From an uncultured bacterium (GTDB lineage: Bacteria; Zhuqueibacterota; QNDG01; DTFT01): DNA of 64,000 nt. Numbering within the stretch: position 1 is the first letter of the stretch; each line of letters starts with the position of its first letter. This document shows, piece by piece, positions 5,277-46,977 of this stretch. Position numbers and translations under genes: made by a program. Location of the stretch: assembly GCA_963736115.1 (NCBI GenBank), contig CAVTNR010000014.1, positions 192,001 through 256,000 of the forward strand, written 5' to 3'. The notes under the pieces were generated by a model. That model was not told the origin of the DNA. It was given only the letters and a program-made list of their open reading frames with translations, and did no database searches.

Positions 5277-6650
5277 TTGATGAAAGGGAGAATGCTGGCC
5301 GCGCTCGGCGCGCTTATTCTGTTCAGCGGCTGTGCCGCTTCCCGGCACGGGCTCGCGGAAGGCCAGTTGAAGCGCGGGGAGTACGTCCAGGCGCTGCGGT
5401 CCTATCTGAGAGGACTGGAACCGCATGCCCGGGACGGAAAGCGGTTCATCTACTACGAGCGCGAGGCGGTCACAGGCCTGGGCGTGACGTACTGGAATAT
5501 GGAACGGTACGAAACGGCTCTGAAGATTCTCCGGCTGGTCGCGGAGAAGGATCCGGATTACGGAAAGGCCTATTTCTACATGGGCCTGGCCTACGAGAGT
5601 CTCGGAGACGAGGCCAACGCCATCGCCATGTACCGCCAGTACACGAAAATCGACCCGGGGGATCCCTTCCGGCAGGCTCTGGCCGGCCGTTATGATTTCC
5701 TGGCCAAGCGTAAGATCACACATGATATCGAGACGGCGCTGAAAGACGAAGGACGGCTGGACGCCTCCTCGACTCCGGAACGCAGCGTGGCGGTTCTCAC
5801 ATTCCTCAACCTCGGAGACAACCGGGAGTGGGAGCCGCTGCAGAAGGGGCTCGCGGACATGGTGACCCGGGATCTGTCCCGGGTGGAGGGGCTGACCGTC
5901 GTGGACCGGACGAAACTGGATCAGATCCTCTACGAGCTCGGCCTGAATGCGTCGAGTCTCGGGGATTCGGCGGCCGCGAGGCGTGCGGGCATGCTCGCCG
6001 GGGCCCGGTATCTGGTCAAGGGATCCTTTCTGGTCATGCCGGATCTGAAGATGACGCTGGACGCCGGGGTTCATCCCTTTCAGAAGGCGAACCAGCCCAC
6101 GACTTTCAGCGAAGACGGAAACCTTTCCACGATGTTTCAGATGGAGAAGCAGATCGTCCTGAGGATCGTGGATTATTTCGGCATTACGCTGACCACCCGG
6201 CAGAAAGAGGCCGTGCTGGAGATTCCCACGGAGAACGTGTCGGCCTTCCTGCATTACTGCCGCGGCCTGGACGCCCAGGACCAGGACGACTACCGGTCCG
6301 CGGTCGCGTATTTCCGGCAGGCGGTGCGGGAGGATCCCGATTTCCGGATGGCCCGGGACTGGCTCATCGTCCGGGAGCTCTGGGACGCGACGCATGCGCA
6401 GAACCTGCGCCGGGTGGACCGAGACGTCGCTTTTCTGACACGGCGGGGCGCGCGGGCGCGTCTGTCGGCGGACAATCAGCCGGAACTTTTCTCCACGTCC
6501 GGCCGTCTTCAGTGGATGAGCCTGAGGCAGAACGCCGGTTTTCTGCCGGGCACCGATTCAAGAAAATCCTTCCAGGAAGCGGGCCTGTCCGGGGCGTCCC
6601 TCCTCCCGCAGAGGCTGGGAGAGCCCCCGGTTCCGCCTCCGGCCCGGTAG
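5277..6650 (+). CDS. Lipoprotein with TPR repeats and a central CsgG/HfaB(TolB_N)-like domain
   Basis: Lipobox LFSGC; TPRs (AYFYMGLAYESLGD); VAVLTF..GLADMVTRDL..LTVVDR..LDQILYEL..AGARYLVKGSF; Pro-rich tail; RBS aggagg. Confidence 0.8.
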   Translation: MMKGRMLAALGALILFSGCAASRHGLAEGQLKRGEYVQALRSYLRGLEPHARDGKRFIYYEREAVTGLGVTYWNMERYETALKILRLVAEKDPDYGKAYFYMGLAYESLGDEANAIAMYRQYTKIDPGDPFRQALAGRYDFLAKRKITHDIETALKDEGRLDASSTPERSVAVLTFLNLGDNREWEPLQKGLADMVTRDLSRVEGLTVVDRTKLDQILYELGLNASSLGDSAAARRAGMLAGARYLVKGSFLVMPDLKMTLDAGVHPFQKANQPTTFSEDGNLSTMFQMEKQIVLRIVDYFGITLTTRQKEAVLEIPTENVSAFLHYCRGLDAQDQDDYRSAVAYFRQAVREDPDFRMARDWLIVRELWDATHAQNLRRVDRDVAFLTRRGARARLSADNQPELFSTSGRLQWMSLRQNAGFLPGTDSRKSFQEAGLSGASLLPQRLGEPPVPPPAR

Positions 6651-6724
6651 GCGGCACGGAGACGGGCCGGCTGCCGCGCCTGAACACGGCCGGCCGCGCG
6701 CCGGACGGCTTTTGACGCATTTAT

Positions 6725-6985
6725 GATTGAAGCTCCCCGCGGCCCCGCTTTGCGGGACCAAGCAATTAGATTTATAAATTATTGAAGACAAGCCGCGGGC
6801 CTTCAATAATGTACTAAATAGGGTAGCATGGTGCCGCCTTGCGGCGAATCTTCAATCGGTATTGCTGTATTGTACAAAATATATTATATTCGCTCGCTTA
6901 CCCCGCCGCCCGCTTCGCGGGATCAAGCTACTTGATGTCTTCTGGTTGAAGACAAGCGGCGGGAATACGCGAGCGATCAGATTCA
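6725..6985. repeat. REP/MITE-like palindromic element, copy A, with two nested ~45-bp inserts (6744-6789, 6910-6953)
   Basis: Shares GATTGAAGCT..GAATCTTC..TATATTCGCTCGCTTACCCCG..CAGATTCA with 46848-46977. The inserts also recur at 44594-44682. Confidence 0.8.
6862..6890 (+). promoter_or_regulatory. Putative sigma70 promoter for the 7060 gene
   Basis: TTGCTG-17bp-TATATT; the same -10 hexamer occurs with 17-bp spacing at 41835 and 58630. Confidence 0.45.
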
Positions 6986-7059
6986 CCCGATCCGTCCCGG
7001 ATCGTTTCAGTCACCGGAGGGGCGGATCCACGCAACGGGACTCGAGGAGAAACTGCACG

Positions 7060-10000
7060 ATGCGAAAATGGATCGTTCTCGGATGTCTGTTCGGATCGAT
7101 CGGATGGGCGGCCGCGCAGCCAGCGGCCAACGTCAGCCGTCTCGGGCGATGGGCACTCGGACAGTGTGAAGTCGTCCACCGGCGGGCGGGATTCCTGTTC
7201 GTCAGCAGCGGCCCGATGCTCGAGGTGTATCAGAACAAGCACGGAGAATACACGAAATCCGACAGCATTCTGATGCCCGGGCTCGTCAAGGGCGTGTGGG
7301 TGAAGAATACACTCAGCCACGCGTACATTGCATGCGGCGACGCCGGACTCCGGGTGGTCTCGTTTGACGCCGTGGACGGCCGTTTCGGCGATGTCGTGGG
7401 AAGTCTCGACACGCCGGGCTCGGCTGAAGGCGTGATGCAGTATGGGAACACGGCCTATATCGCGGACGGGCCCGGCGGCCTGGCCGTCGTCGACGTATCC
7501 GATCCCGCGCAGCCCACTCTGCGGGGCACGCAGGCCACCGCCGGCGCCGCCCGGGGCGTGTGGGTGGTCGCGAATACGCCGGCCATCGACAACACCATGG
7601 TGCTCGTGGCCGCCGATTCGGCCGGGCTCTATTCCGTAAACGTCACCAATCCCACGGCTCCGGCGGTCTATGACCGTCTGGCCTTCAATACGGTTTACCC
7701 GGGCTTCCAGGTCCCGGCCCCCCGTGCGATCCAGGTCACCGTGATCGACACCGTGGCCTATGTCGCGACCGGCTACGGCAGCCTGCGCACAGTGGATATC
7801 CGGAATCCGCGCCTGATGACCCAGATGGGCGTGTGGATGAACAGCCCCTACACCGAAGTGCTCGGAATGGACGTCACCTGGGAAACCGTCGGGGGAAAAC
7901 CGGCTCCGCAGTACGCCTACCTGGCCACCGGCGCCAAAGGCGTGTTCTGCCCGATCAATATTCAGAATCCCAGGGATCTCAAGGGCCCGCCCTATCAGAA
8001 TGTGGACACGCGCGGCACAACGACGCGCATCGTCGTTTCCACGGAGGCGGATTCGCTTTTCATCGGAAGCGCGCTGATGCGTTTCAAGGCAGGAGAACTG
8101 CTCTTCGTGTCCGACCGGGAAAACGGGCTCCTTTTCATCGACGCCCGTGAAAGCTATCAGCCGTCCGTGATCGATTCGATCCGGACCGGCGGAGATGTCT
8201 GCCGGGACGCCGATTGGTCCGGCCGGTACGCCTATGTCGCGGCGGGATGGGCCGGCGTCAAGATCGTGGACACAACCGGAACCGCGGCAGACCCCGACAC
8301 CGACCGTCTGCCCCTGAGGGGCACGATTGACACCGGCGGTCAGGCCAGGGGGCTCCGGGTGGTCGGTTCCAGGCTGTATGTCGCCAACGGCGTGAAGGGT
8401 CTGGGGATCTACAGCATCAGCGATCCGGTGAATCCGGCACTGTCCGGCCGGTTCACGGCCGTCACGGACACCGTTCACCGGGTCGATCTGCTTTCCGGTT
8501 CCTATGCATTTCTCGCAGCGGGCCGGGACGGTATCCGGATCGTGGACATCAGCGGGAGCATTTTCGAAACGGGCCAGAGCCCGCTCCGGACGGCCGGACC
8601 GGCTCTAGATGTGAAGATACGCGGTTCGAAGGCTTACGTCGCGACACCCGGCGCTGTATATGTATACGCGCTGACCCAGTCGGGCGGAGCCCTGACCGGC
8701 GTTTCTCTGACCGACTCCCTGACGGCGGGCGCCGCGCTGCCGATGGACGCCCGCGCATTGGACGTCATCGGCGACTCGGTTTTCGTCGCGAACGGCAGGC
8801 ACGGCCTGATCCTCTGGAAAACCTCGAACGACGCCGTTCTCGTTAAAAATGTCGGCGGCACGGTCACCGGCATCACGGTCCGGGAGAAGACACTGTACGT
8901 CAGCGATGCGGTCAACGGGTTTCGCATCTACGACGCGTCCACCGCGGGGGAAATCAAGGAAGTCGGGTATTATCGGACTTTGGGCGAAGCACTGGGACTC
9001 GGCATCTCCGACTCGGACGGAAAGGCTGTCATGGCCGACGGTCGGTACGGATTCTGGCTGTTCCGAAGCCGCATCAGCCCGGCCATCACCATCACGCCGA
9101 CGACCCTGAATTTCGGGCTCGTTCCGCCGGATTATTCCCGCTCACTCACCGCCCTGATCCGGAACACCGGCACATCGATCCTGAAGGTGACGAATATCCA
9201 GAGCAAGCGCACCACGTATTCATTCTCCGCCACGCGTTTTGAAATCGCAGCCGGCGACACCTTCCGGCTTGTCATCCGTTTTGCGCCGTCCTATGACACC
9301 TGGCCGTTCCGTCAGGACGACCGCATCGAGATCAGCACCAACGATCCGTCCAACCTGACGGCCTATATCAACCTGCAGGCCGAGGTCACCGCCCTGGTGA
9401 CGGAAGGCCCCTATACGCCGGACGATTTCACGGTCGGACTCTGGCATTTCGACGAGGCCGACGGTGTTCTCACGGCCGCGGACGGCTCGGGCAACAGCCT
9501 GCACGGCCAGCTGGCCGGAACGCCCTTCCGGGAAAACTCGGCCCGTTCCGGTTACGGCCGCCAGATCGGCTTCGACTCGGAAACCGACCGGGTTCTCGTT
9601 CCGCAGAATCCGCTCTTTAACTTCAGCGAGAAATCTTTCACGGCCGAATGCTGGTTCAGCATGGACGCGCTTCCCACGGATCACTATGTCCTGATCCGGC
9701 ACGGAAGCGAAACCCAGGCGCAGTTCGAACTGGCACTGGGGTCGGGCGACGTGGGGCTCATCGGCCGTGTCTGGGACAGCTCCGGCGCGCGCACCCTGAC
9801 CTCCGGATCCATTGACCTGTTCAATGTCAATCAGTGGTATCACGCGGCCCTGACCTGGAACGGCGATTCGTTGAAACTGTACCTGAACGGCGTCCAGAAG
9901 GCCGGCCTGCGGGTCCGGAACCGGCTGAAATTCGTGGCCACCGAACCGCTGGCCATCGGCGCCAACCAGTACGGAACGGCCGTGTTCCGGGGGCGCATGG

Positions 10001-13000
10001 ACGAAGTGCGGCTTTCCAGCATCGCCCGCGAATCCTGGGAGTACCATGTCACGCGCTCGAGAATCGCGGTCTCCCAGTCCATCGTCCAATTCGGGAACGT
10101 TCTGGCCAACCAGACCCGGACCGTCCCTCTGGCCATCTCCAATCTCGGCAGCCAGCCGCTGGTGGTCCAGTCCGTGACGAGCGGGAACGCGCATGTGACG
10201 GTGAATCCGTCCGGTCCGTTCACTCTGTTCGTCGGACAGACGGACACACTCGATGTCTCCTTCTCGCCGGTCGGCGTGGAGGTGCTGACGCAGGGCAGTC
10301 TGCTCCAGATTCGGAGCAATGATCCCACCTATCCGGTCCTGGCCGTCCCGCTCCGGGGAAGCGGCATCAATTCGCTTCCGGCGGGGCCCTATGCGGCCGA
10401 TCCGATGACGCTGGGTCTGTGGCATCTCGACGAAACCTCCGGTCTGGTCGCGCGCGATTCCTCCGGTAACGGCATGAACGGAGCCCTTTCCGGATCCGTG
10501 GCCCGCGAAACGGTGACGCGCAAATTCGATCCGGGATCCGCTCTCCGTTTCGACGGTCAGAGCGGACTGGTTTCCGCTCGGCCGCCCGCAGGTGTGAAAA
10601 TCGAACCGACTTGGGGCGGACTCACCGCCGAAGCGTGGTTCTATCTGCAGGGCCTTCCGCTGGGCAGGGGCACCCTGATGCGCCGCGCCTCCGGCGCCGC
10701 ATCCCAGTTCCATCTCTACGTAGACAGCACGGCCGCCCTGGTGGGGCAGTTTTTCAATACGCAGCAGCAGGCCTTCTCCGTGACCAGCGCCTCGATGGGC
10801 GCGCTGAAGATCCGGCAGTGGTACCACGCCGCTGTCGTTCTGGAGCGGGACAGCCTCCGGCTCTACGTCAACGGCAATTCCGTCGCGGTCCGCCCCTTCA
10901 CGGGAACGCCCGCGGGCGGGGGCAGCCCCGCCGGAACCGACACGATGTCCGTCCTGATCGGATCGAGCTGGAACCGGAGCACGCCCTTCTACGGCGTGTT
11001 GGACGAGATCCGCCTGTCTTCGACGGCGCGTCAGCCATGGGAATATAACGTGAACCTGGCGAGAATCGGCCTTACTCCGGAATTGCTGGCTTTCGAGAGC
11101 GTTCTGCTCGGACAGAGGCGGACCCTGGCGCTGACGGTGGGGAACACGGGCATCGACAACCTGGTCGTGACGGACATCGTTTCCTCGCTTCCGTCGGTTT
11201 TCTCCGTGGACACCACGCATTTCACGGTTGCATCCGGCGCAAGCCGGAGAATTCATGTCACCTATCATCCGCAGTCCACGGGCGCCGTGACCGCACAACT
11301 CACTTTCCGGAGCAACGACCCGTTCTGGCCCAACCGGGCGGTTCCTCTGACGGGAACGGGCCTGGCGGAACGGTCGTTCGTCCGGTACGCGGCGGACGCA
11401 TTCACCCTCGGCCTCTTCCACATGGATGAGGCGGCCGACACCTCCAAAACCCTCTGGGATTCATCCGCCGTGGGCCTCCGGGGCACCCTTGAGACGGGCG
11501 TGACGCGCACGGATTCGGGCCGCTTCGGCCGGGCCTTGCGCTTCGCGAACGGATCCGTCCGGATTCCGACAGCGGGCCGGATGGCGATTCCGGATGATGC
11601 GTTTACCCTGGAATTCTGGTTCAACATCCAGACGCTTCCGGGAACATCCGCCGTTCTGCTCAAGCAGGGGAACGGCGATACGGCAACGGTCGAGATTTCG
11701 CTCGTCAACGCCGCGTCCGAAGGCCTGACGGCCCGATTCTGGAACGGGCAGGGCGTTGCCACCTCCCTGAAAACGGGAAGCATCTCCGCCACGCCCCGCA
11801 ACCAGTGGATGCACGTCGCGGTGACCTTCACCTCCGATACGCTGAAACTCTATTTGAACAATATTCTCCGCGACCGGAAGGCATTTACCGGGCCGCTGCG
11901 TCAGGCCCGGGCGTCCGTTCTGCGGCTCGGGTCCGGCCTCAGCAAGGAGAACCCCTTCACCGGCATGCTCGACGAGCTGCGCATTTCGCGGATCGCACGG
12001 GCCTTATGGGAAATTCATGTGGTTCCGCCGGTGATCGAGGCCGCTCCCGTCTCTCTGAATTTCGCATCCGTGCTGAAGACGGAAAAACGCGCCTTCCCGT
12101 TCTGGGTCTGGAACGCGGGCGACCAGGATCTGGTTGTTTCCTCGATCTCGGGGATGACCGCCCAGTTCACGATCCCCGATTCGGTCCGCACCTTCACTCT
12201 GAGGCGCCTGCAGACCCGGATGGTCACGGTCACGTACAGCCCGGACACAGTCAACGTGACGCAGACCGCCGTGCTCACGGTCGCCAGCAACGATCCGAAA
12301 ACGCCCGCCGTGAACATCCAGCTCGAGGGCAGGGGCGCTGAATTCACCGGCCGGAAGGAATACGCCGCGGACGCGCATACGATCGCCCTGTATCACATGA
12401 ATTCCGCGGAGAGCGACTCCGCGGAGGACGCCTCCGGAAACCGCCGCCACGGAATTCTCCAGAACGACGCGATCTGGGCCTCCGATGGATTTTTCGGCCG
12501 CGCCATCTGGCTCGACGGAGACGGGGACCGTATCCTGGTCCCGGCCGATTCGGCCCTGATCATGGACTATGACCGGCGGAGTTTCACGCTGGAATGCTAC
12601 TTCAAGACGGACACGCTGTCACAGACGATACTCTCCCTCGGGTATACGGACAGCCGCCGCTCGCGGAATTTCGGCCTGGACATCGATTCGGAGGGGCGTC
12701 TTTCCGTCGAACACTTCGGTTCGGGCGGCCCCCGCGTCAACGACGCGGCATGGCATTTTGCGGCCTTCTCCTACAATCATCTGCTCAAGCGGGGCCGGCT
12801 GTTCATCGACACCCTGCAGGTCTGGGAAAGGCCCGTCACCCCCTATGCGTCGCGGCAGGAATTCCTCCCGCTGGTCATCGGCGCGGCCCAGGCGGACTCA
12901 GTGTCGTTCACGGGACATTTCAAGGGCGCGGTTGACGAGGTCCGGATCTCCGACATCGTCCGGGAGTCCTGGGAATTCCAGGTCATCGACTACGGCATAC

Positions 13001-14646
13001 GCGTCCAGTCAATCGTCCCGGACCCGCCGACCGCCGGATCGATGATGACCATCGTATTCGCCGTTCCGTCCGCGCTTCAGGCCCAGCAGGTGATTCTGTA
13101 CTACCGGCAGGGCGGGCAGACCGGCTACCGGTCGGTTCAGACGGAGCGTCAGACGAATTCCGTGTATAAGACCGTGATTCCCGCCGAACAGGTGACCGAG
13201 CGCGGGTTTGAATACTGGCTCGAAGTCCGGACCGACAAGGGCGACGTCACCGTGCCCGGAATCGATCCGGAACAGAACCCGATGTCCCGGAGCGTGCGGA
13301 CCGTAGGCCTCAGATCCGGCGTCACCTTCCGCGCCCGGGAGTTCCAGATGTTCTCGATTCCCATGAAGCTTGACACCGCCACGGTGCGGAGCGTGCTTGA
13401 GGACAGGGACGATTTCGGCTCCTATGATCCCTTCCAGTGGCGGCTTTTCTGGTGGCATCGCCTCCGCCAGCGGTACATCACCTACAACAACACGGATACG
13501 ACGCGGTTGTATTTCGATTTCTCCCCGTCCCGCGCCTACTGGCTCGTGTCCTCGACTGAGAAGAACTTCGATCTCGGGAACGCGCGCACCGTCTCTCTCG
13601 ATACCGTTTTCCGGGTACCCGTGGATCCGGGGTGGAACATGATCGGCAATCCCTTCAATTTCACCGTCCGGTGGCAGGATTGTTCGCTCTCTTCGGATTC
13701 CATCGGAACCCTCTACTCCTACAATCCGGAGGAGGGATACGGCCCCGACTGGCAGACCCTGGATCCTTGGAAGGGGTACTGGATCTACAATGCGGACACG
13801 GTGTCGCACGCCCTGTTCATCCCCCCGAAATCGCGCGGTTTCGGCAAGACGGGCGGGAAACGGCCCGGACTCGCGGAATCGCTCGGCAGTGGAGAATGGC
13901 TGCTGCAGCTGTCGGCGGCCACGAAGCGCCAGAAGGACGGCCTCCAGTACGCCGGCGTCAAGAAAAACGCCCGTGACGGGTGGGACATATGGGACAGGCC
14001 CGATCCGCCTCCGGTCGAACCACGGATTTCGGCCGGATTCGATCACGGCGACTGGGGACGGCATTCCGGCACCTATGCGGCGGATATCCGGAAAAGCGGG
14101 ACGGAGGGCCATGTCTGGAGCCTGTTCGTCGAGACCCAGAATCCGGAAGAGGCGGTGACGCTGGCATGGAAATGGATTTCGACCATGCCGGAGGGATGGA
14201 AGGCTTTCTTGTTCGACCTCGCCGAAGGCACATCCGTGAACATGACCGAGCTCGGGGTGAAATCGTTCATGAGCGGTTCAACGGCACCGGATGTCCGGCT
14301 GTTCAAACTGGTTGCCGGCTCCGAAGCTTTCATCCGGGCCGAGAGCGAGGGCATTCCCCTGGAACCGGTCGTTTTCCATGTCTTCCAGAATTATCCGAAT
14401 CCGTTCAATCCGGAGACCACGATCCGCTACCGTCTGCCGAAGAACGGAAACGTCGAAGTGTCGGTCTTCAATGCGCTCGGGCAGAAAATACGCATTCTGG
14501 TCGACGCGACCCAGAAAACGGGTGAACAGTCGGTGGTATGGGACGGCAGCGATGACTCAGGCCGGCCCGTTCCCAGCGGCCTTTACATCTCCCGGGTGAA
14601 AACCCGCGAATCGACGTCCACCCGAAAGATGCTGTTGGTCCGATGA
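7060..14646 (+). CDS. Giant secreted protein (~2528 aa): LVIVD-type repeats, 4x[Ig-like + LamG], C-terminal FlgD-Ig/T9SS-type domain
   Basis: RBS gaggag before ATG 7060; signal peptide MRKWIVLGCLFGSIGWAAA; AYIADG..GLAVVDVSDP repeats; four DExRxS..ARxxWE LamG ends; QNYPNPFNP CTD. Paralog of 2..4054. Confidence 0.88.
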   Translation: MRKWIVLGCLFGSIGWAAAQPAANVSRLGRWALGQCEVVHRRAGFLFVSSGPMLEVYQNKHGEYTKSDSILMPGLVKGVWVKNTLSHAYIACGDAGLRVVSFDAVDGRFGDVVGSLDTPGSAEGVMQYGNTAYIADGPGGLAVVDVSDPAQPTLRGTQATAGAARGVWVVANTPAIDNTMVLVAADSAGLYSVNVTNPTAPAVYDRLAFNTVYPGFQVPAPRAIQVTVIDTVAYVATGYGSLRTVDIRNPRLMTQMGVWMNSPYTEVLGMDVTWETVGGKPAPQYAYLATGAKGVFCPINIQNPRDLKGPPYQNVDTRGTTTRIVVSTEADSLFIGSALMRFKAGELLFVSDRENGLLFIDARESYQPSVIDSIRTGGDVCRDADWSGRYAYVAAGWAGVKIVDTTGTAADPDTDRLPLRGTIDTGGQARGLRVVGSRLYVANGVKGLGIYSISDPVNPALSGRFTAVTDTVHRVDLLSGSYAFLAAGRDGIRIVDISGSIFETGQSPLRTAGPALDVKIRGSKAYVATPGAVYVYALTQSGGALTGVSLTDSLTAGAALPMDARALDVIGDSVFVANGRHGLILWKTSNDAVLVKNVGGTVTGITVREKTLYVSDAVNGFRIYDASTAGEIKEVGYYRTLGEALGLGISDSDGKAVMADGRYGFWLFRSRISPAITITPTTLNFGLVPPDYSRSLTALIRNTGTSILKVTNIQSKRTTYSFSATRFEIAAGDTFRLVIRFAPSYDTWPFRQDDRIEISTNDPSNLTAYINLQAEVTALVTEGPYTPDDFTVGLWHFDEADGVLTAADGSGNSLHGQLAGTPFRENSARSGYGRQIGFDSETDRVLVPQNPLFNFSEKSFTAECWFSMDALPTDHYVLIRHGSETQAQFELALGSGDVGLIGRVWDSSGARTLTSGSIDLFNVNQWYHAALTWNGDSLKLYLNGVQKAGLRVRNRLKFVATEPLAIGANQYGTAVFRGRMDEVRLSSIARESWEYHVTRSRIAVSQSIVQFGNVLANQTRTVPLAISNLGSQPLVVQSVTSGNAHVTVNPSGPFTLFVGQTDTLDVSFSPVGVEVLTQGSLLQIRSNDPTYPVLAVPLRGSGINSLPAGPYAADPMTLGLWHLDETSGLVARDSSGNGMNGALSGSVARETVTRKFDPGSALRFDGQSGLVSARPPAGVKIEPTWGGLTAEAWFYLQGLPLGRGTLMRRASGAASQFHLYVDSTAALVGQFFNTQQQAFSVTSASMGALKIRQWYHAAVVLERDSLRLYVNGNSVAVRPFTGTPAGGGSPAGTDTMSVLIGSSWNRSTPFYGVLDEIRLSSTARQPWEYNVNLARIGLTPELLAFESVLLGQRRTLALTVGNTGIDNLVVTDIVSSLPSVFSVDTTHFTVASGASRRIHVTYHPQSTGAVTAQLTFRSNDPFWPNRAVPLTGTGLAERSFVRYAADAFTLGLFHMDEAADTSKTLWDSSAVGLRGTLETGVTRTDSGRFGRALRFANGSVRIPTAGRMAIPDDAFTLEFWFNIQTLPGTSAVLLKQGNGDTATVEISLVNAASEGLTARFWNGQGVATSLKTGSISATPRNQWMHVAVTFTSDTLKLYLNNILRDRKAFTGPLRQARASVLRLGSGLSKENPFTGMLDELRISRIARALWEIHVVPPVIEAAPVSLNFASVLKTEKRAFPFWVWNAGDQDLVVSSISGMTAQFTIPDSVRTFTLRRLQTRMVTVTYSPDTVNVTQTAVLTVASNDPKTPAVNIQLEGRGAEFTGRKEYAADAHTIALYHMNSAESDSAEDASGNRRHGILQNDAIWASDGFFGRAIWLDGDGDRILVPADSALIMDYDRRSFTLECYFKTDTLSQTILSLGYTDSRRSRNFGLDIDSEGRLSVEHFGSGGPRVNDAAWHFAAFSYNHLLKRGRLFIDTLQVWERPVTPYASRQEFLPLVIGAAQADSVSFTGHFKGAVDEVRISDIVRESWEFQVIDYGIRVQSIVPDPPTAGSMMTIVFAVPSALQAQQVILYYRQGGQTGYRSVQTERQTNSVYKTVIPAEQVTERGFEYWLEVRTDKGDVTVPGIDPEQNPMSRSVRTVGLRSGVTFRAREFQMFSIPMKLDTATVRSVLEDRDDFGSYDPFQWRLFWWHRLRQRYITYNNTDTTRLYFDFSPSRAYWLVSSTEKNFDLGNARTVSLDTVFRVPVDPGWNMIGNPFNFTVRWQDCSLSSDSIGTLYSYNPEEGYGPDWQTLDPWKGYWIYNADTVSHALFIPPKSRGFGKTGGKRPGLAESLGSGEWLLQLSAATKRQKDGLQYAGVKKNARDGWDIWDRPDPPPVEPRISAGFDHGDWGRHSGTYAADIRKSGTEGHVWSLFVETQNPEEAVTLAWKWISTMPEGWKAFLFDLAEGTSVNMTELGVKSFMSGSTAPDVRLFKLVAGSEAFIRAESEGIPLEPVVFHVFQNYPNPFNPETTIRYRLPKNGNVEVSVFNALGQKIRILVDATQKTGEQSVVWDGSDDSGRPVPSGLYISRVKTRESTSTRKMLLVR

Positions 14647-44336: not shown

Positions 44337-44489
44337 AGCACCAAGCACAAAGCATAGAGCTTCAGTCAGTGATTTGAAGAATATCTGAGAGTTGGGATTG
44401 CTTCGATCGGGAGTCCAGAAGCCTGGTCATTCTGGTTCCAGTTTTCCTGGATGATCGAAGATTGGGTTTCTGACCGCTCCGACGGGTCG

Positions 44490-44700
44490 GATTCTCCGGC
44501 CCCGCGATGCGGGAACAAGCTGCAGATGCGGGCTAATGAAGACTTCGCCGGACCCAGTAATGAGATTTGTTCATTAGTGAAGGCCCTCCGCTTGTCTTCA
44601 ACAAGCAGGGATATAATAGCTTGATCCCGCAAAGCGGGGCCTTCAAACAGAAGCCATATAAAAGATTGGTCCCGCGAAGCGGGCGACGGAGTTCTTCATT
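44490..44700 (-). repeat. REP-like cluster, copy C, with two tandem ~45-bp units (44594-44638, 44639-44682)
   Basis: Reverse complement matches the inserts at 6744/6910; 44490-44514 matches 46870-46894 at 24/25 in inverted orientation. Confidence 0.8.
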
Positions 44701-46847: not shown

Positions 46848-46977
46848 GATTGAAGCTGCCCGCGGCCCGTCCCGCATCGCGGGGCCGGGGAATCTTCTAT
46901 CTGTAGAGAACAGACTATTTATATTCGCTCGCTTACCCCGGGGCAAGCCCCGGGGTAAGCGCTCGCTGACAGATTCA
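46848..46977. repeat. REP/MITE-like element, copy B, with an uninterrupted 15-bp palindrome
   Basis: CGCTTACCCCGGGGC-AA-GCCCCGGGGTAAGCG (46930-61); 21-nt identity of 46920-40 with 6885-6905. Confidence 0.8.

Follow-up and report, generated by a model that had tools for sequence, protein, structure and literature searches.

The genome of this uncultured bacterium and those of its congeners carry repeats that are built on two levels. Units of about 45 nt are placed at the tips of hairpins in larger composite repeats, the composites form length ladders with the number of units they hold, and related genomes differ by the presence or absence both of whole composites and of single units. These two-level repeats are abundant in the four genomes of the genus that were searched. 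The reading that we prefer, with a probability of about 0.45, is that they form a system of hairpin-rich, non-autonomous repeats, both levels of which are processed as single-stranded DNA hairpins by a Y1 HUH enzyme acting in trans. The window, the whole 64,000-nt stretch of DNA that was analyzed, is G000:C14:192001-256000. G000 is a MAG of 3.34 Mb with 60% GC, 87% complete and in 31 contigs. Its congeners G001-G003 are ~90% identical to it in the locus flanks; the compared genomes are all fragmented, incomplete MAGs. The repeat loci of the window are listed in Table 1.

Table 1 Repeat features of the window (positions counted from the first nucleotide of the window)
Feature	Position	Strand	Basis
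Family I composite, three units	6726..6983	+	alignment to G001, G002, G003; HSP adjacency
Composite left end ATTGAAGCT and hairpin 1 left arm CCCCGCGGC (6735-6743)	6726..6743	+	sequence reading
Unit 1, 46 nt, at hairpin 1 tip	6744..6789	+	nhmmer E=6.3e-11
Loop remnant and hairpin 1 right arm, AAGCCGCGGG	6790..6799	+	sequence reading
Degenerate reversed unit, tail-to-tail with unit 1	6800..6846	-	sequence reading
Linker and outer/inner left arms of hairpin 2 (..TTCGCTCGCTTACCCCGCCGC)	6847..6909	+	sequence reading
Unit 2, 44 nt, at hairpin 2 tip	6910..6953	+	nhmmer E=2.0e-12
Hairpin 2 right arm and composite right end AAGCGGCGGGAATACGCGAGCGATCAGATT	6954..6983	+	sequence reading, congener alignment
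Family II-type composite, four units (two tandem, two reversed)	44406..44700	-	end motifs, profile matches
Tandem unit A	44639..44682	-	nhmmer E=3.5e-11
Tandem unit B	44594..44637	-	nhmmer E=4.7e-12
Two reversed units: 42-nt type, then 5'-truncated 41-nt one	44502..44584	+	sequence reading; weak nhmmer E=5.5, 1.2
Family I composite without full units	46849..46975	+	congener alignment, HSP adjacency
Head-only nested hairpin TCCCGCATCGCGGGG in hairpin 1 of the unit-less composite	~46870..46884	+	sequence reading
Empty hairpin 2, CCCCGGGGCAAGCCCCGGGG = CCCCGGGGC AA GCCCCGGGG	46936..46955	+	sequence reading

An earlier note on this DNA had described units inserted in palindrome loops in empty, single and tandem states, and most of this description holds. 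Removal of 6744-6789 restores CCCCGCGGC joined to AAGCCGCGGG, and removal of 6910-6953 restores CCCCGCCGC (6901-6909) joined to AAGCGGCGGG (6954-6963), in agreement with its coordinates. The empty homologous site that it reported was found as the hairpin CCCCGGGGCAAGCCCCGGGG at 46936-46955, and its head-to-tail pair on the minus strand as units at 44639-44682 and 44594-44637. The unit ends are fixed as it had claimed: the window has 4 matches to GCGGGAYCAAKC-N14-26-TTGAAGRC, and none was found in any of 100 dinucleotide shuffles. The reversed units at 6800-6846 and 44502-44584 and the head-only hairpin at ~46870-46884 had been overlooked. The arrangement with the degenerate reversed unit recurs at G000 C14:258548-258747 and in other copies, and the composite left-end motif TTGAAGCTCCCCGC occurs 104 times in G000 when up to 2 mismatches are allowed. 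In the computed single-stranded DNA fold, 6726-6980 forms nested hairpins (-59.8 kcal/mol, z-score -6.3), and unit 2 (6910-6953), with nested hairpins in this fold, has a 3' mini-hairpin of its own (GTCTTC..GAAGAC). The 6726-6983 composite lies just upstream of a very long ORF (6862-14646, 2594 aa); an ATG at 7061 follows the repeat.

The genome-wide search for the unit ends was performed on G000 with nhmmer and a unit profile built from 24 exact-motif seeds. It gave 200 matches (104 with E<1e-5, 57 from 1e-5 to 1e-2 and 39 weaker). Counting those matches with E<=0.05 that cover 30 or more model positions gives 169 units in 107 clusters, of which 63 contain one unit, 29 two, 12 three and 3 four. 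The unit is 42-47 nt long and reads 5'-[T/C]CCCGC-NNN-GCGGGA-YCAAGC-(AT-rich core)-ATTGAAG[G/A]-3'. The consensus of 142 aligned units is CCGCTKCGCGGGAYCAAGCWATTATAT...ATTGAAGRC, both ends being near-invariant. The cores of the four units cited in the earlier note do differ, as it stated. Genome-wide, however, the cores are subfamily variants of one sequence and not free sequence, because core positions A21, T22, A26, T27, T31, T34, T37 and T38 are conserved among the 142 aligned units and the core subtypes are few and recurrent, one of them with its own 3' hairpin G[C/T]CTTC..GAAG[G/A]C. Cores that are copies of one sequence had been named in that note as an observation that would speak against it, and the subfamily variants come close to this.

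The head of the unit is a 5-7-bp stem in which C-G to G-C swaps are found. In 94 distinct heads the share of paired stem positions is 76%; 500 shuffles gave 70% on average and 72% at most. The unit is a short, GC-rich, imperfect palindrome present in high copy in intergenic DNA, as REPs are. The GTAG or CGTC tag is missing from it; YCAAGC follows the stem and TTGAAGRC stands at the far end. Orthologous comparisons revealed neither terminal inverted repeats nor a target-site duplication at the unit junctions. An attC-like reading was dropped after reading the sequence, which appears to lack the attC core.

The position of a unit is precise: it follows the left arm of a hairpin and precedes the loop, or else stands at the hairpin's 5' foot, on either strand and with 0-4 units per composite. 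The preference for hairpins is supported by the 57 of 154 arrays that have perfect complementary arms of >=6 bp, compared to 34 of 3000 random sites; many further arrays have arms with a mismatch or stand at a hairpin 5' foot. The palindromic tip of hairpin 2 holds units in either orientation, each on the strand-matching side (C3:92874, C14:112107). Many of the two-unit clusters are tail-to-tail with the 9-nt spacer CCGCSGCTT, and 15 head-to-tail pairs occur. Head-only nested hairpins, which correspond to the first ~17 nt of the unit without its tail, were seen at 46870-46884 of the window and at G000 C27 ~13980 in comparison with G001 (L172). Genome-wide, neither orientation relative to GC skew is favoured among units (74:79). 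Among Family II composites an orientation opposite to the local G-rich strand prevails (31:57 for left ends, p=0.007; 11:32 for right ends, p=0.002), and for Family I there is a trend only, but the skew is weak (median 0.025), several tests were run and no weight is placed on this bias.

Most units lie in two MITE-like composite repeats, Family I and Family II, with base forms of 113 bp and 155 bp and two GC-rich hairpins each. Family I has the order ATTGAAGCTCCCCGCSGC[slot]AAGCSGCGGGGAATCTTCTATCTGTAGAGAAGAGACATCTGATATTCGCTCGCTTACCCCGCGGC[slot], followed by AAGCCGCGG[reversed slot]GGGAATGCGCTCGCTGWCAGATTC, and Family II follows the same plan with other linkers and ends. Composite ends are of the type 5'-(ATT)GAAG-NN-hairpin ... 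GATT-3'; the likeness between the two ends is weak (TTGAAGCT compared to the reverse complement TTGAATCT), with a 2-3-nt TT/ATT ambiguity. The Family I ladder runs 113, 157, 202, 247 and 291 bp, with end-to-end lengths of 113-114 (8 copies), 155-158 (12), 201-205 (7), 246-250 (7) and 288-294 (4); 38 of 58 paired copies are on the ladder and 20 off. The Family II ladder runs 155, 200, 245, 293 and 335 bp, with lengths of 152-155 (20 copies), 198-202 (4), 245-246 (3), 292-294 (2) and 335 (1); here 30 of 32 paired copies are on the ladder and 2 off. The 169 units are distributed over Family I (91), Family II (28), I/II (5), REP3 (8), REP2 (6), REP4 (4), FamV (4) and other places (23). Units are found in at least 6 unrelated palindromes, and these hosts together with the 44-45-bp ladder steps bear out the picture of a discrete module. 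A Family I copy and a Family II copy share one unit without any mismatch, and 34 unit pairs between the two families have <=3 mismatches. Runs of CGGAACY or GAACTTT-type heptamers adjoin hairpin repeats in intergenic DNA (G000 C22:158238-158438 and many flanks); at one orthologous site the run is of unequal length in G000 and G002, by 62 nt.

At both Family I loci of the window it is the whole composite, be it with or without units, and not the unit, that has been gained or lost. The flanks of both loci are directly joined in the three congeners. For the first locus G001, G002 and G003 read ..GCATTTsGGAwT^CACCCGATCC with abutting flanks, and the insertion is 255 bp long, spanning 6729-6983 or, given the ATT ambiguity, 6726-6980. 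The second is a 124-bp insertion (46852-46975). The earlier note's view of the unit as the mobile entity at these loci is not supported by these 255-bp and 124-bp differences. Alignment of repeat loci of the relatives to G000 covered 60 further loci and gave 69 intergenic gap pairs, 21 of them one-sided and 39 with sequence on both sides. Among the 21 one-sided gaps 16 are clean whole-composite differences (10 Family I, 6 Family II). Empty Family I sites, the two window loci counted, read TTCA in 7 of 12 cases and TCA in 10 of 12. Composite insertion takes place at TTCA-like sites, and the only junction repeat is the 2-3-nt TT/ATT ambiguity.

Unit-only differences were found as well. Among the 39 two-sided gaps 5 are clean differences of 43-46 nt, exactly one unit each, either gained in the one genome or lost from the other. 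These indels at orthologous hairpins uphold the earlier claim of a discrete, array-forming module. Hairpin 1 of Family II accounts for three of them, a FamV hairpin for one, and the remaining one is an additional tandem unit. Their boundaries are identical, with an insert of the form [T/C]CC(C/G)GC...TTGAAG(G), which is placed after the last base of the left arm and ahead of the loop (..CCG^CAAG, ^CTTG, ^CACA) or else immediately 5' to the hairpin (GTCAT^CCCC). No direct repeats stand at the junctions of these five orthologous differences. A sixth case (L172) shows two units in one genome and only the head hairpin in the other. The composites that host the unit-only differences are common to just two of the four genomes. 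Unit targets have only ..G/T^C.. in common, and TT^CA is found for composites in 7 of 12 sites.

It is possible, though we lean against it, that only the composites move and that the units are passive modules like boxB, changed by gene conversion, unequal recombination or slippage, with reshuffling among the ~200 copies of the composites that might, for instance, follow cleavage and repair of a hairpin. The whole composite differs at both Family I window loci and in the 16 further clean cases, certain unit pairs are met again in several composites, and identical adjacent units are present in relatives (pairs on G002 C70, C116 and C136). Host family and head subtype of the units are correlated, in line with units that propagate together with their host. 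BOX arrays vary likewise, and two S. suis frames have one boxB, as far as the available text of that study describes them (PMC3049150). Several observations speak against passive modules. Units reside in at least 6 unrelated hairpin hosts, of which FamV, REP2, REP3 and REP4 offer only ~20-40 bp of homology; the differences of exactly 43-46 nt lack a flanking direct repeat; and both orientations of the unit are found in palindromic tips, each on the side that matches. Furthermore, the tandem neighbour is the closest relative of a unit in 0 of 15 pairs in G000, with a median identity of 0.69 within tandem pairs against 0.93 to the best match elsewhere. Neighbours that are never closest relatives argue against simple slippage in G000.

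In the preferred reading, the two-level system driven by a Y1 HUH enzyme, composites would move as whole pieces into TTCA-like sites and units would insert at hairpin tips or 5' feet, also in unrelated REP-type palindromes. A RAYT-type Y1 HUH enzyme would act in trans on the single-stranded hairpin DNA of both levels, cutting and rejoining it at several cleavage sites like TnpA-REP on BIMEs. Repeated insertions may then build head-to-tail arrays; such arrays would grow because insertion leaves the target intact. If single-stranded DNA circles are involved, the unit circle would carry the junction ATTGAAGG^TCCCGC. The unit junctions (G^TCCCGC, GAAGG^C) differ from the composite junctions (TT^GAAG, GATT^), so that one enzyme would need several site types. 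TnpA-REP has been described to cleave on both sides of iREP and in linkers and to exchange strands, and excision and integration of ssBIME circles have been proposed for it, according to the accessible text (PMC3333891). More tentatively, the unit may be mobile in its own right, as one of the smallest self-contained mobile DNAs known. Such a 'parasite of parasites' would enter as single-stranded DNA at the 5' side of REP-type hairpin loops, leave its target intact and stack, driven in trans by a Y1/HUH enzyme or some other enzyme; we hold this to be doubtful but worth stating.

Cognate RAYTs are normally flanked by their own REPs. Three RAYT genes are present in G000 (on C17, C2 and C19), all above the NF047646 cut-off, as well as one IS110-family gene (C14:88161-88577). 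The window itself holds neither a Y1 nor an IS110 gene, as the earlier note had said. The HUH/RAYT or IS110 mobilizer that it proposed gained no support from gene neighbourhoods: 0 of 44 loci (43 RAYT, 1 IS110; G000-G004, G023, G026, G028) are flanked by units or composite ends, and the mobilizer is an enzyme that we infer. In L023 a unit is found 1.4 kb away from a RAYT. REPs of other kinds flank the three G000 RAYTs, among them REP2 and REP3 at two of the genes. Each of the three loci, C17:73572-76862 (L001), C2:70017-73277 (L002) and C19:56121-59366 (L003), has its own flanking REP family (GGGAGTGCCGCGCCCCAGCGCGGC; GGTAGCCGCAGCC..GGCTGCG; GTAGGTCCGAAAKGCC...), and the L001 RAYT gene has one REP copy inside. 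Of the 31 genomes of the order 27 encode RAYTs (as many as 14 matches per genome), and co-occurrence of units and RAYTs is therefore uninformative. No IS200/IS605 TnpA other than the RAYTs was found. In the search for an autonomous copy, composite ends 400-8000 bp apart enclose no recognizable transposase frame, and the genes between neighbouring unit clusters are ordinary ones (pectate lyase, subtilase, TyrRS, methyltransferase, DUF4097). Counting against the Y1 HUH reading are the 0 of 44 unit-flanked loci, the missing GTAG/CGTC tag, the host-linked head subtypes and the lack of strand bias.

Insertion of the unit into REP tips by an IS110-type (bridge-RNA) or other non-HUH recombinase, in the way of IS110- and IS3-family elements, appears decidedly improbable. 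G000 does encode one IS110-family gene and REP-targeting IS elements are documented (PMC1525189, PMC12288879, accessible parts). However, the IS110 locus has no unit or composite end, and a single IS110 gene in G000 stands against 33-82 unit copies per genome in four genomes. To our knowledge, known IS110 ends do not resemble a 45-nt cargo with a 5' hairpin and without inverted ends.

Exact-pattern searches of 31 genomes of the order gave 82 matches in G000, 54 in G002, 46 in G001 and 33 in G003. Outside these four there were 14 in G026, which belongs to another family, 2 each in G005, G023 and G028, and 1 in G004; the 22 other genomes of the order had 0 exact-pattern matches, and the reversed-pattern control had 0 in all 31 genomes. 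In G026, G023 and G028 the unit is fixed inside a different repeat, AATGAAGTC..GTTCTTTTCTTCAGAAGAAAAGAACCC[unit]AAAAGAACCGGCCTTTTTGCC, and an empty form of this G026-type repeat was looked for and not found. The repeat (L205-L218) has an AT-rich hairpin, and the unit within it is bordered on either side by the 9-nt direct repeat AAAAGAACC. In a scan of a public genome collection with a gap range of 18-26, which leaves 44-nt units outside the range, the matches listed were mostly chance; at least 2 unclassified MAG records among them contain genuine unit copies.

Conservation of the GCGGGAYCAAGC and ATTGAAGRC blocks in other families of the order, within a different repeat (G026, G023, G028), favours a host function, in which the unit would be a selected module (a site for a DNA-bending or nucleoid protein, a structured RNA or a promoter piece) recruited into several repeats. 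ATCAAGCWATTA, the T-variant of unit positions 13-24, would fit the IHF consensus core. This putative fit may be set beside reports, in the text available to us, that REPs recruit IHF (PMC3479197, PMC3333891). We regard such a function as unlikely. ATCAA rather than ACCAA is present in just 49 of 142 units, and Rfam 15 gave 0 matches at the gathering score over the window and 0 even at E<=1 over 6600-7100. No clear preference of gene context, orientation included, is apparent from a rough, GC3-based gene call (Family I 23, 15, 4 and 7; Family II 14, 6, 3 and 8). Free presence and absence between 90%-identical genomes, moreover, argues that the unit is dispensable.

An assembly or binning artefact is very unlikely indeed. 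G000 is a MAG of 87% completeness in 31 contigs, but these repeat families were recovered from four genomes assembled independently of one another, as well as from contigs of four public runs, and the junctions are exact and reproducible. The G000 strain was absent from the public read runs (best word share 0.19), and the four runs gave contigs of relatives and of the repeats only. A 29.6-kb contig of X4 has position 6660 joined to 7022 with 101 other letters between.

The repeats described here are a nested variant of mosaic repeats known from other bacteria, with BOX and BIME supplying the modular plan. REP tags are defined as GTAG or CGTC by the stem, and nesting of REPs in small palindromes, with empty targets, is a side remark in the available text of Di Nocera et al. 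(PMC3733652). Targets in T. roseum fit CCGSSCC(n3-4)GGSSCGG and are also present unoccupied in hundreds of copies, and the dimers of A. variabilis and H. neapolitanus lie within longer palindromes (PMC3733652). The likeness is that of a small hairpin repeat inside a small GC-rich palindrome. Compared to these nested REPs, as far as that text (PMC3733652) describes them, the insert here is 45 nt long and consists of a hairpin, an AT-rich tail and a TTGAAG end without a GTAG/CGTC tag; units are arrayed up to 4, sit in at least 6 host palindromes and show differences at orthologous sites.

BOX of S. pneumoniae and S. suis shares the plan of two end modules with a variable inner tandem (Croucher et al. 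2011, PMC3049150, in part). The inner module is ~45 nt here as well, with ladder steps of 44-45 bp in two frames. The available text has the BOX inner module fold apart from the frame, with boxB shared by two S. suis frames, and proposes slippage or recombination as the way in which BOX arrays change (PMC3049150). Unlike BOX, tandem neighbours are dissimilar here (0/15) and units stand exactly at hairpin tips, also in unrelated REPs. The alternating-orientation hairpin mosaic with variable tandem number resembles the E. coli REP/BIME, at least as the accessible text of Ton-Hoang et al. presents it (2012, PMC3333891). Module maps, ladders and congener differences indeed show BIME-type conserved linkers and variable copy number per locus. 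TnpA-REP is a Y1 enzyme which cuts several sites around the hairpin; the BIME/TnpA-REP model, as set out in that text, does not include insertion at the tip of a second hairpin (PMC3333891). Unlike that system, the units lack a GTAG tag and a unit-flanked cognate RAYT.

The REPIN-RAYT system has short hairpin repeats as inverted doublets, in high copy between genes, as described in the accessible text (Bertels & Rainey 2011, PMC3116915, PMC3337134). Many units here stand in tail-to-tail pairs, but singlets and head-to-tail arrays are common too, no unit-flanked RAYT was found among the scanned loci and units are nested in other repeats. REP-targeting IS elements likewise use REP hairpins as specific targets; according to the parts available, these are full insertion sequences with transposase genes (Tobes & Pareja 2006, PMC1525189; ISPpu9, PMC12288879), while the insert here is a non-coding 45 nt. 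A DDE-type MITE differs from the unit, which is without terminal inverted repeats or target-site duplication. PATEs derived from IS200/IS605 have subterminal hairpins and neither inverted ends nor a duplication, and they insert beside a fixed target of 4-5 nt; the unit has a hairpin and lacks inverted ends and duplication, and its targets share only ..G/T^C... In a limited search of open-access papers no description was found of a 45-nt module stacked in the hairpin tips of several REP families; one may exist elsewhere.

For this uncultured group, the ladders make the loci usable as strain markers. If the units are passive, they add one more modular repeat family. If they truly hop into hairpin tips, they provide a natural series of empty, single and stacked states, within one genome and between 90%-identical genomes. 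Such a series would be usable to work out the cut-and-paste of REP-type DNA, and it could show how BIMEs and BOX elements gained their modularity, which has so far been argued from in vitro data.
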